Assembly (NCBI GenBank): GCA_965661455.1 | Contig: CBFIDV010000013.1 | Coordinates: 2,413 to 66,412, forward strand | DNA from: Roseivirga sp. | GTDB lineage: Bacteria; Bacteroidota; Bacteroidia; Cytophagales; Cyclobacteriaceae | Reading direction: 5' to 3' | Length of the DNA: 64,000 bases | Part shown: in pieces, positions 1,750 through 3,164 of the stretch | Position numbering within the stretch: position 1 is the first letter of the stretch | Layout: every line of letters starts with the position of its first letter | Made by a program: the position numbers and the translations under genes | The notes under the pieces: generated by a model | Seen by the model: the letters and a program-made list of their open reading frames with translations, nothing else | Databases searched by the model: none | Told to the model about the DNA's origin: nothing

Positions 1750-2238
1750 GTCGACACCTTTTTAAAAAAAGAAATGAGATAATGCAGAGAAATATTAACA
1801 CAACCAACCATTCAATTCTATTACAAAGTTGTCGACTATCAATCTTAACAGACTTCGCCCTAAGGCTTTGTTACCCATAAATAGAGTCGACAACTTTCTA
1901 AGAAATAACGATTGTGACAGAAAACTAATAACACAAGAGTCCTTGATGGCTTGAGTAAAAGTTGTCGACAATCGATCATAATAGTATAGGTTTGAAGGCC
2001 TTGTTAACAATGCATAGAGTCGACAACTTTCTAAGAAATAATGATTGTAACAGAAAACTTATAACACAAGAGTCCTTGATGACTTAATTAAAAGTTGTCG
2101 ACAATCGATCATAACAGTATAAGTGTTTAGACTTTGTGATCCACAAATTAAAGTGTCGACAACTTTTATTAAAAAATGTAATCATGCGTGAAAGAAACAA
2201 CTCCACCAACCACCGAAACCTAATACAAAGTTGTCGAC
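1750..2238. repeat. four tandem ~132-137 bp units, each bounded by the inverted 12-mer GTCGACAACTTT / AAAGTTGTCGAC
   Basis: The motif occurs at 1750-1761 (variant gtcgacaccttt), 1825-1836, 1886-1897, 1958-1969, 2018-2029, 2091-2102, 2155-2166 and 2227-2238, in alternating orientation. The arms of each unit are 60-63 nt apart. The units starting at 1886 and 2018 are roughly 90 percent identical by eye. Confidence 0.9.
1962..1993 (+). promoter_or_regulatory. Bacteroidota-type promoter-like element inside repeat unit 2
   Basis: TTG (1962-1964, inside the AAAGTTGTCGAC arm), then 21 nt, then TAGGTTTG (1986-1993), which matches the TTG / TAnnTTTG consensus. The equivalent position in unit 3 is degenerate (taagtgtttag). 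Confidence 0.3.
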
Positions 2239-3164
2239 TATTGGTACTTATACTAGTATTAAACGGATGTAACAATCAAACTAGTCAAACTAAAAACCTA
2301 CCATCCGAACCCTATATCTATGTTTTAGGTATTGCCCAAGATGCTGGCTATCCACAGGCAGGTGTTCGCTCTGAATTTAAATTAGTAGAAGAAGGAGAAC
2401 GTCAAAAACAACACACCGTCTCGTTACTTTTAGTAGATCCAAATAATGAAAAACGCTATCTTTTTGAAGCGACACCAGACTTTAGAGAACAGCTGGAAAT
2501 GGCCGATAAAGTGTCCGAAGCATCAAACTATCCTTATGATGGCATCTTTTTAACTCATGCACATATTGGTCACTATATTGGACTCATGCATATGGGATTT
2601 GAGGCCATGGGGACCAACAAGGTAGTAGTTCATGCAATGCCTAGAATGAGAGGGTACTTAGCAACCAATGGCCCTTGGAGCCAATTGGTAAATTTTGAAA
2701 ACATTCAACTAGCATCACTTTTTGATTCAGCAACTGTTTCTCTCAACGATGGGATTCAGGTTATGCCATTCACCGTACCTCACAGAGATGAATACAGCGA
2801 GACTGTTGGTTTTAAAATCTCTGTAAACCAAAAGAGTTTGGTATTCATTCCAGACATTGACAAATGGGAGAAGTGGGATGTAGACATAAGAGAAGTTGTC
2901 AAAGCCAATGATTACATCTTAATAGACGCTAGTTTCTATGCCGATGGTGAACTTCCAGGAAGAGACATGAGTAAAATCCCCCATCCGTTTACCTCAGAAA
3001 GCATGGAGCTTTTCAAGGACCTTAGCGCCAGAGACAAATCCAAAGTCATTTTTATTCATGCTAACCATTCTAATCCAATTCTTGATCCCAATAGCAAAGA
3101 ATATAAAGAAGTCTTTAATCAGGGATTCAGTGTCGCAAAGGAAGGACAAATCATTAAATTTTAA
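2184..3164 (+). CDS. PqqB-like MBL-fold metallo-hydrolase, lipoprotein
   Basis: Start moved to ATG 2184 (MRERNNSTNHRNLIQSCRLLVLILVLNGC, with a lipobox LNGC). It has the MBL motif LTHAHIGHY. The C-terminal GRDMSKIPHP ... IFIHANHSNPIL resembles PqqB (GRDMGH ... ILIHINNTNPIL). Confidence 0.8.
   Translation: MRERNNSTNHRNLIQSCRLLVLILVLNGCNNQTSQTKNLPSEPYIYVLGIAQDAGYPQAGVRSEFKLVEEGERQKQHTVSLLLVDPNNEKRYLFEATPDFREQLEMADKVSEASNYPYDGIFLTHAHIGHYIGLMHMGFEAMGTNKVVVHAMPRMRGYLATNGPWSQLVNFENIQLASLFDSATVSLNDGIQVMPFTVPHRDEYSETVGFKISVNQKSLVFIPDIDKWEKWDVDIREVVKANDYILIDASFYADGELPGRDMSKIPHPFTSESMELFKDLSARDKSKVIFIHANHSNPILDPNSKEYKEVFNQGFSVAKEGQIIKF

Follow-up and report, generated by a model that had tools for sequence, protein, structure and literature searches.

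A 64,000-nt stretch of Roseivirga sp. DNA (contig CBFIDV010000013.1, positions 2,413 to 66,412; hereafter the window) contains, at positions 1750–2238, a tandem array of four units, each bracketed by a 12-nt inverted repeat, which reaches into the 5′ end of a gene for a PqqB-like lipoprotein of the metallo-beta-lactamase fold (2184–3164, + strand; hereafter the enzyme gene). Comparison with related genomes gives good support to the view that this element is a lineage-specific minisatellite of 133–136 bp units and variable copy number, that its arrival severed the enzyme gene from its original start codon and signal peptide, and that its last unit was co-opted in their place. One of the two 12-nt arms is invariant among all units compared, and we tentatively favor an explanation in which the arms would act in cis on the leader of the enzyme mRNA.

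Searching the window for the 12-mer GTCGACAACTTT and its complement AAAGTTGTCGAC at up to one mismatch yielded eight copies, all within 1750–2238 and in strictly alternating orientation (1750+, 1825−, 1886+, 1958−, 2019+, 2091−, 2155+ and 2227−). Shuffling of the window predicts 0.23 copies, and none of the shuffled sequences reached eight. The original prediction, made from the letters of the window alone, had described these eight alternating copies, and its positions hold except that the fifth copy starts at 2019 rather than 2018 and that the first (L1, GTCGACACCTTT) departs from GTCGACAACTTT by one mismatch. All units lie on the + strand. Unit 1 (1750–1885) is composed of a left arm (L1, 1750–1761), a loop with an ATG at 1782 (1762–1824), a right arm (R1, 1825–1836) and a spacer (S1, 1837–1885). 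Unit 2 (1886–2018; L2 1886–1897, loop 1898–1957, R2 1958–1969, S2 1970–2018) and unit 3 (2019–2154; L3 2019–2030, loop 2031–2090, R3 2091–2102, S3 2103–2154) are built in the same manner without an ATG. Unit 4 (2155–2238) is the live cassette: its left arm (L4, 2155–2166) is followed by a loop with an A-rich leader and the ATG of the enzyme gene at 2184 (2167–2226), and its right arm (R4, 2227–2238), which encodes (Q)SCRL, runs without a spacer straight into the coding sequence. The arms are perfect inverted repeats in units 2–4. Loops measure 63, 60, 60 and 60 nt from arm to arm, consecutive units begin at distances of 136, 133 and 136 nt, and the linkers between boxes alternate between 60–63 and 49–52 nt.

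The units are homologous and arranged head to tail. Tandem Repeats Finder (TRF) joins units 2 and 3 with a 133-nt period and 90% matches, units 1 and 4 are 72% identical across 71 nt including the ATG, and all units resemble one another above the level of shuffled sequence. The claims that there are four diverged tandem units, that the start-codon loops of units 1 and 4 are homologous and encode the peptides quoted for them, and that only unit 4 reads on into the enzyme gene were all confirmed. Units 2 and 3 had been called decayed versions of the same sequence; they are indeed about 90% identical to each other, and their loops are significantly related to that of unit 1 (score 30 versus 14.8 ± 2.8 for shuffles). 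To exclude that the copy number results from misassembly, which the original prediction had named as a possible objection, we compared six independent assemblies of the same species (the window and loci L001, L085, L089, L090 and L091), which were drawn from ENA, JGI and NCBI and stem from different samples and assemblers. Each contains the four units in the same order within a collinear structure of 550/551 nt, the only differences being three single-nucleotide polymorphisms (SNPs) and one single-base indel. Hence, the array is no assembly artefact.

The product of the enzyme gene matches PF12706 with 70 bits and the PqqB model TIGR02108 with 113 bits, under the cut-off of 245 bits for the latter, and its homologs are proteins of Roseivirga and other Cytophagales. 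Its signal peptide is encoded at 2184–2270, the codon of the lipobox cysteine at 2268–2270. Directly 5′ of the enzyme gene, every relative examined harbors a conserved open reading frame (ORF) of 57 aa (MELTKEQLES...ECVGCGS; 1502–1675, + strand, in the window) with the C-terminus CVGCGS, which matches no Pfam or NCBIfam family. Given its position beside a PqqB-like enzyme, this cysteine-containing peptide could be a substrate or partner of the enzyme. An intrinsic terminator of the 57-aa gene (1714–1740, + strand; 8-bp stem, UUCG loop, T7) follows, and the array begins a few bases after it.

Aligning the orthologous upstream regions, as the original prediction had proposed, revealed the origin of this arrangement. 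In every ortholog outside two sister lineages (loci L003–L014 and the N-termini P0003–P0026) the enzyme gene starts 4–8 nt past the stop codon of the 57-aa gene. The window keeps this old start (ATG at 1683) together with the same first 21 codons (MQIASFSTSNQEPFVALFLLL), directly followed by the array; they now open a remnant ORF of 65 aa (1683–1880, + strand) that passes through the terminator and L1 into unit 1 and stops in S1. Homologous signal peptides are intact in L003–L011 and P0003–P0026. Since the start lies 4–8 nt after the 57-aa gene in all other orthologs and survives in the window, the array is, by this comparison of loci, an insertion between the T-run of the terminator and the enzyme lipobox. 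Four units are present in the window lineage (six assemblies), two in L002 and in L086–L088, and none in L003/L004 and all other orthologs. Four-fold degenerate sites are 37% identical between the window and L002, and 26% and 24% identical to the array-free L004, which places the window and L002 as sisters; between the array-bearing lineages these sites are near saturation. The array was therefore acquired by the ancestor that the window lineage shares with its sister (L002, L086), and it is confined to these two.

In the ancestral layout, the signal peptide (MKKAPFSTLNLEPLLALFLFL..C) is encoded across the terminator hairpin, GAGCC-N6-GGCTC-T7 being translated as E-P-x-x-A-L-F-L, and this hairpin lies inside codons ~12–20 of the signal peptide in 11 of 11 Roseivirgaceae loci (L004–L014, around positions 2950–3010). 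Because the terminator sits inside the signal-peptide codons, an enzyme of the ancestral type could be made only by read-through, to which ribosomes that translate through the hairpin possibly contribute.

Loss of the old start and signal peptide by insertion, and their replacement from unit 4, are well supported. Unit 4 contributes the leader, the ATG and the N-region of the signal peptide, with QSCRL coming from R4, and the sequence after R4 supplies a hydrophobic core that joins the old lipobox. In the gene-proximal units of all three array-bearing lineages the ATG lies 42–45 nt before the right arm, and unit 4 of the window is orthologous to unit b of L002 (score 99). Good support also exists for regarding the upstream units as spare or decayed cassettes. 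They had been described as copies of the 5′ end of the PqqB-like gene. This idea did not survive: although a likeness to the ancestral 5′ end (TAATCATG..., CAACC...) is convincing by eye, no unit scores above shuffles against seven orthologs, and the true ancestral start lies upstream of the array. A second likeness, between the sequence after R4 with its hydrophobic core and lipobox and the spacers S1–S3, is striking by eye but not significant either.

We next consider how the units change. L002 and L086 are 96–100% identical over the sigma factor gene upstream, the 57-aa gene and most of the enzyme gene, yet their arrays are only 60–70% identical, near the value for shuffled sequence. Moreover, two loop families cut across the lineages, one comprising window units 1, 2 and 3 and the gene-proximal unit of L086, the other window unit 4 and both loops of L002; the loop of the gene-proximal L086 unit resembles that of window unit 1 (score 44 versus 15.6 ± 2.4 for shuffles), not unit 4. 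Such flanks around such arrays indicate that the units turn over by recombination, and it is well supported that they are gained, lost and recombined quickly. As the simplest reading, units may have been repeatedly lost, duplicated and recombined from a larger ancestral array, or array alleles may have been exchanged between strains.

Two explanations draw on this turnover. According to the first, the boxes are crossover sites of a site-specific recombination system, a mini-shufflon or cassette exchanger that swaps or inverts leader and start cassettes to switch expression. The conserved boxes in both orientations, the differing cassettes between strains with 96–100% identical flanks and the resemblance of the proximal L086 cassette to the distal cassette of the window would suit such a system. 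However, no loop or spacer in the three lineages matches the reverse complement of another and no segment is found inverted in ten assemblies, breakpoints of similarity fall inside the loops rather than at the boxes, no recombinase gene is present within 10 kb on either side (L086) or in the ~4-kb flanks (L001), and segments of 60 nt are too short to loop for inversion. In these respects the array also differs from known invertible-DNA switches and shufflons, and we regard a dedicated exchange system of this kind as very improbable. According to the second, the array is a neutral minisatellite that replaced the 5′ end of the enzyme gene by chance and then changed by slippage or unequal crossing-over, its arms being kept alike by conversion or by template-switching at quasipalindromes. 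Copy numbers of 0, 2 or 4 and the mosaic units of near-identical strains are in line with it, and within the species the arms, with 20% of the length, hold two of the four array polymorphisms and hence give no sign of extra constraint at that scale. Conversion, though, should homogenize loops and spacers as well, which are only ~50% identical when the right arm is at 100%. Template-switching accounts for the complementary arms of a unit but not for a sequence that is identical across lineages. Neutrality therefore appears improbable to us.

The conservation that any explanation has to accommodate was determined on an alignment of eight distinct units from the three array-bearing lineages. Averaged over all pairs of units, identity amounts to 100% in the right arm, 82% in the left arm, 51% in the loops and 36–44% in the flanks, although four-fold sites between the lineages are close to saturation. 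All eight units carry AAAGTTGTCGAC followed by WAT, and where the right arm is coding, its synonymous positions are unchanged (four of four) in all three lineages. Four units have a perfect left arm, whereas that of the first unit carries one or two mismatches in every lineage; in the gene-proximal unit of L086 the left arm has become GTTACCAACTAG, with 7 of 12 matches, next to a perfect right arm and an intact gene (L086 9960–10058; likewise in L087 and L088). Judged from this alignment, the 12-nt box is under strong sequence constraint and its inverted partner under a weaker one.

One way to account for a constrained box is a role in the mRNA. Since the array follows a strong terminator and occupies both the region before the coding start and the coding start itself, we suppose that the boxes would act on the mRNA leader. 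In our preferred explanation, which we hold as the leading candidate while considering it short of probable, the right-arm box AAAGTTGTCGAC and its complementary left arm would pair in alternative registers around the start region. Pairing within a unit would bracket the start codon, whereas pairing between neighboring units would leave it open, and the balance could set translation initiation, transcript stability or both for an enzyme gene that has been detached from the ancestral start embedded in its terminator. Taken singly, the units form a 12-bp stem with z-scores of −2.7 to −4.7, and the whole leader of the window folds with a z-score of −4.6 relative to shuffles. Its minimum-energy structure, however, follows the alternative register, with every right arm paired to the left arm of the following unit. 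The imperfection of the first left arm in all three lineages fits this inter-unit register, where that arm has no partner. The arrangement is reminiscent of 5′ stem-loops that bracket an initiation region, as the 5′ half of the stem lies ~18 nt upstream of the ATG and the 3′ half in codons 15–19. It differs from known examples, which are single-copy and hold the initiation region in the stem, in that a 60-nt loop contains the start, the module occurs repeatedly, and conservation concerns the sequence rather than the pairing.

Several observations weigh against this role in the leader. Across the units, none of the 12 arm pairs shows a double change: nine are invariant, one includes a G·U wobble, and two include mismatches (three mismatched cells), so that every non-wobble departure is a mismatch and no compensatory change is found. 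Taken alone, this pattern speaks neither for nor against pairing. The arms look constrained in sequence rather than in pairing. Three transitions occur in the arms (the C>T strain SNPs at 1891 and 2238, and a T for C at position 6 of the left arm of L086 unit a), and all of them keep G·U pairing on the + strand; three events of one type are expected by chance in one case out of eight and are not significant. L086 retains the enzyme gene despite its degraded proximal left arm, and the leaders of L002 and L086 fold no better than shuffles (z-scores of −1.2 and −0.6). With the start codon in a 60-nt loop instead of a stem, occlusion would be weak. Finally, transcription of the array, by read-through or from a promoter of its own, and action at the RNA level are themselves predictions from sequence. 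The hairpin around the start codon that had been envisaged originally is a possible structure, faced with the lack of covariation, the competing register and the loss of the left arm in L086.

A constrained sequence without compensatory changes might instead be a DNA site for a sequence-specific protein that binds in either orientation, for instance a regulator, a protein of the nucleoid or gyrase type such as those at Escherichia coli BIMEs, or a factor that senses methylation at GTCGAC. The invariance of the right arm in eight units, in sequence and not just in complementarity, would be expected of such a site, and 8 of the 12 GTCGAC sites in 64 kb are concentrated in the 0.5 kb of the array. 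Avoidance of GTCGAC in the rest of the window owing to restriction-modification was considered and rejected, as 4 sites outside the array, where ~9 are expected, are unremarkable. Alternating orientation with two alternating spacers is also the architecture of BIME-2 elements, which the array mimics. On the other hand, the box is asymmetric, with a 6-bp palindrome extended on one side and a 10-bp palindrome at R2 and R3 only, which is unlike the sites of dimeric regulators. No regulator gene is adjacent, the start-to-start spacings of the boxes (72–75 and 61–64 nt) do not correspond to whole helical turns, and no further site exists in 189 kb. The operator array for a palindrome-binding regulator proposed at the outset is therefore not matched by dyad-symmetric sites; in the wider form of a protein site the idea is kept here as an alternative, although we deem it unlikely.

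We also asked whether the spacers hold promoters. If each contained a Bacteroidota promoter with −33 and −7 elements that uses the TTG of the preceding right arm, the displaced gene would be transcribed from stacked promoters, and a gene behind a strong terminator would benefit from a promoter of its own. The −7 motif TAnnTTTG is in use in the organism, as it occurs at most 200 nt upstream of 11 of 49 other genes scanned, versus ~5 expected from base composition; a twelfth match is the array's own. This site, TAGGTTTG in S2 (1987–1994), lies 22 nt past the TTG of R2 (1962–1964), so that the arrangement noted in the original prediction exists with a spacing of 22 rather than 21 nt. It is, however, the single exact −7 motif of the array: S1 and S3 deviate from the consensus at the homologous positions, the arrays of L002 and L086 contain no TAnnTTTG, one match per 0.5 kb is near chance (0.19 expected), and 22 nt falls just outside the scanned range of 17–21 nt. 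No site in the array combines the features of a Bacteroidota sigma-A promoter, namely TTG, a 17–21 nt spacer, TAnnTTTG and conservation upstream. The prediction of stacked promoters is thus weakly supported and in our view highly improbable, and both it and cassette exchange are less likely than the leader, protein-site, selfish-repeat and neutral explanations. Outside the array, the 57-aa gene is preceded by a Bacteroidota-type promoter-like site (1444–1473, + strand; TTG-N19-TAAATTCA), with the same arrangement in L002 at 1420 and a sequence visibly kept in L004, L006 and L008–L010. A possible antisense promoter-like site, TTG-N17-TACATTTT on the minus strand at 2173–2200, overlaps with the enzyme gene's start codon and may be due to chance. 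Promoter boxes of the extracytoplasmic function (ECF) sigma type, patterned on the TGTAAC...CGAC of the Bacillus subtilis SigX promoter, were discarded, since the spacings of 12–15 nt do not fit and the region upstream of the sigma factor gene lacks CGAC.

Searches for further copies covered the window, the related loci, GTDB genomes, IMG/VR and JGI metagenomes. The 12-mer forms no other pair in the 64-kb window at up to two mismatches, and a covariance model of the unit recovers only the known units in 189 kb (the window plus 125 kb of related loci). The exact hairpin pattern has no match in 185,579 GTDB species genomes or in IMG/VR; in the JGI metagenomes it returns the same locus and one unrelated contig. 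The latter match, a perfect palindrome inside a coding region, sits at the extreme end of that contig (L084 5543–5633) and is probably an assembly artefact. A genome-wide scatter of the 12-mer, which the original prediction had set as a check, was thus not observed in the sequence covered; since the rest of this genome was outside the search, a low-copy family would be compatible with these results. Among the families of Rfam 15 only a tRNA reaches the gathering score in the window, and nothing in 1000–2600 beats E = 0.4 (best score 22 bits). The 30-aa peptide encoded by the hairpin, when compared with 1.84 billion representative proteins, gave one match, to a spurious repetitive protein without a BLASTP alignment, and a 71-aa minus-strand ORF across units 1 and 2 has no homolog. 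Two 41-aa ORFs starting with TTG in R1 and R2 were rejected as coding sequences, as they show no sign of constraint at the protein level and have no counterpart in L002. A search of the literature for the 12-mers gave cloning primers and nothing else.

These searches bear on the possibility that the array is a selfish palindromic repeat, akin to a miniature inverted-repeat transposable element (MITE), a REPIN or a Correia-like element, that landed next to the terminator and was amplified locally. Its arms would then be terminal inverted repeats for a transposase encoded elsewhere, and the gene would have survived merely by using an ATG inside the element. Inverted 12-nt termini that enclose a variable interior, absence from close relatives, a position immediately after a terminator hairpin, the rapid turnover of units and a second indel-polymorphic element 400 nt upstream are all suggestive of such an origin. 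Against it stand the absence of another copy in the data searched and of target-site duplications: the bases flanking the arms differ in the window (ATA/TAT, AGA/AAT, AGA/AAT, AGT/TAT) as well as in L002 (AAA/TAT, ACA/TAT). Neither a transposase nor a RAYT is found among the called genes around the array (for RAYT, among Pfam-annotated genes within 10 kb in L086 or ~4 kb in L001, although a RAYT need not be adjacent). Furthermore, copies that have long been resident should decay, but orthologous units preserve an intact right arm in lineages whose silent sites are saturated. Taken together, we consider a selfish origin doubtful, to the same degree as a protein site.

When compared to characterized repeats, the array appears closest in overall architecture to arrays of bacterial interspersed mosaic elements and repetitive extragenic palindromes (BIME/REP), and it is also like intra-operon minisatellites of the MIRU type; its effect on the gene would resemble that of Correia or Rickettsia palindromic insertions. 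With the enterobacterial BIME/REP and the Pseudomonas REPINs it shares a short conserved motif in strictly alternating orientation, two alternating types of variable linkers, and a location directly behind a terminator-like hairpin, amid the genes of a single transcription unit. However, those families comprise tens to hundreds of dispersed copies with a RAYT transposase, whereas the array was found at a single locus; the REP motif spans ~20–40 nt, as opposed to a motif of 12 nt with linkers of 50–60 nt, and one unit of the array is part of a coding sequence. Like the mycobacterial MIRU-VNTRs with their units of ~50–130 bp, the array consists of tandem units between two ORFs of an operon, with a copy number that varies among lineages and small ORFs that run into neighboring genes, but MIRUs are dispersed at ~40 loci, have no bracketing inverted repeat and do not supply a start codon or signal peptide to the gene downstream. 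The Correia elements of Neisseria, which reside in transcripts, and the Rickettsia palindromic elements, which reside in reading frames, are likewise small palindromic inserts that alter expression or N-termini; they are high-copy families with defined termini (a TA duplication for Correia) and do not form tandem arrays of this kind. A last comparison concerns the attC arrays of integrons (CALINs), with which the array has in common a one-directional order, reshuffled units, and hairpin-forming sites of ~60–140 nt with variable interiors and conserved outer boxes containing AAC...GTT. The attC consensus boxes R″ (RYYYAAC) and R′ (GTTRRRY) are not matched by the array (CGACAAC, GTTGTCG), whose stems are perfect without extrahelical bases, whose 'cassettes' would be only 49–52 nt between hairpins, and which has no integrase among the neighboring genes. 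The array belongs to no known family and is classed among the local palindromic tandem repeats that remodel the 5′ end of a gene.

The neighborhood of the array contains further features. A gene for an ECF sigma factor (374–952 of the window) heads a divergent operon and is followed by DUF4097 and HEAT-repeat genes, an order also seen in L001 and L086; the latter two genes likely form an anti-sigma module. The region upstream of the sigma gene (953–1040) is strongly conserved among relatives. Between the sigma gene and the 57-aa gene lies a non-coding segment (~1100–1420; L002 1020–1269) that the window and L002 share with 87% identity, although their four-fold sites are only 37–44% identical, and that is missing from L086, whose flanks are 96–100% identical to those of L002. 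It holds a direct repeat of ATTCTACCNCAACCCTAAAG (1244 and 1287) and a GC-rich hairpin (1307–1325), has no Rfam match, and could be a mobile insert or an RNA of a kind not yet described.

Should the array be merely a local minisatellite, it would still be a useful strain marker, with limited general interest. Irrespective of its function, the locus illustrates, in a clean natural case, how a gene deprived of its start codon and signal-peptide N-terminus by an insertion can be rescued by sequence within the insert. The ancestral layout, in which an intrinsic terminator is retained inside signal-peptide codons throughout the family, is in turn a testable case of transcription–translation coupling. 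An invariant right-arm box together with fast-changing interiors and turnover of units among near-identical strains points to a constraint that no described repeat family explains. It is conceivable, although we give the idea little weight, that AAAGTTGTCGAC and its complement are the recognition sites of a dedicated putative factor, an RNA- or DNA-binding protein or a recombinase, and that they define a new modular 5′ cassette system in the Bacteroidota. Interchangeable leader and start cassettes bounded by the boxes and exchanged by recombination would then re-set the expression of a gene freed from its terminator-embedded start. If such a partner factor exists, the box would be a new cis-element in the Bacteroidota, a phylum in which regulation of translation and by leaders is poorly understood.

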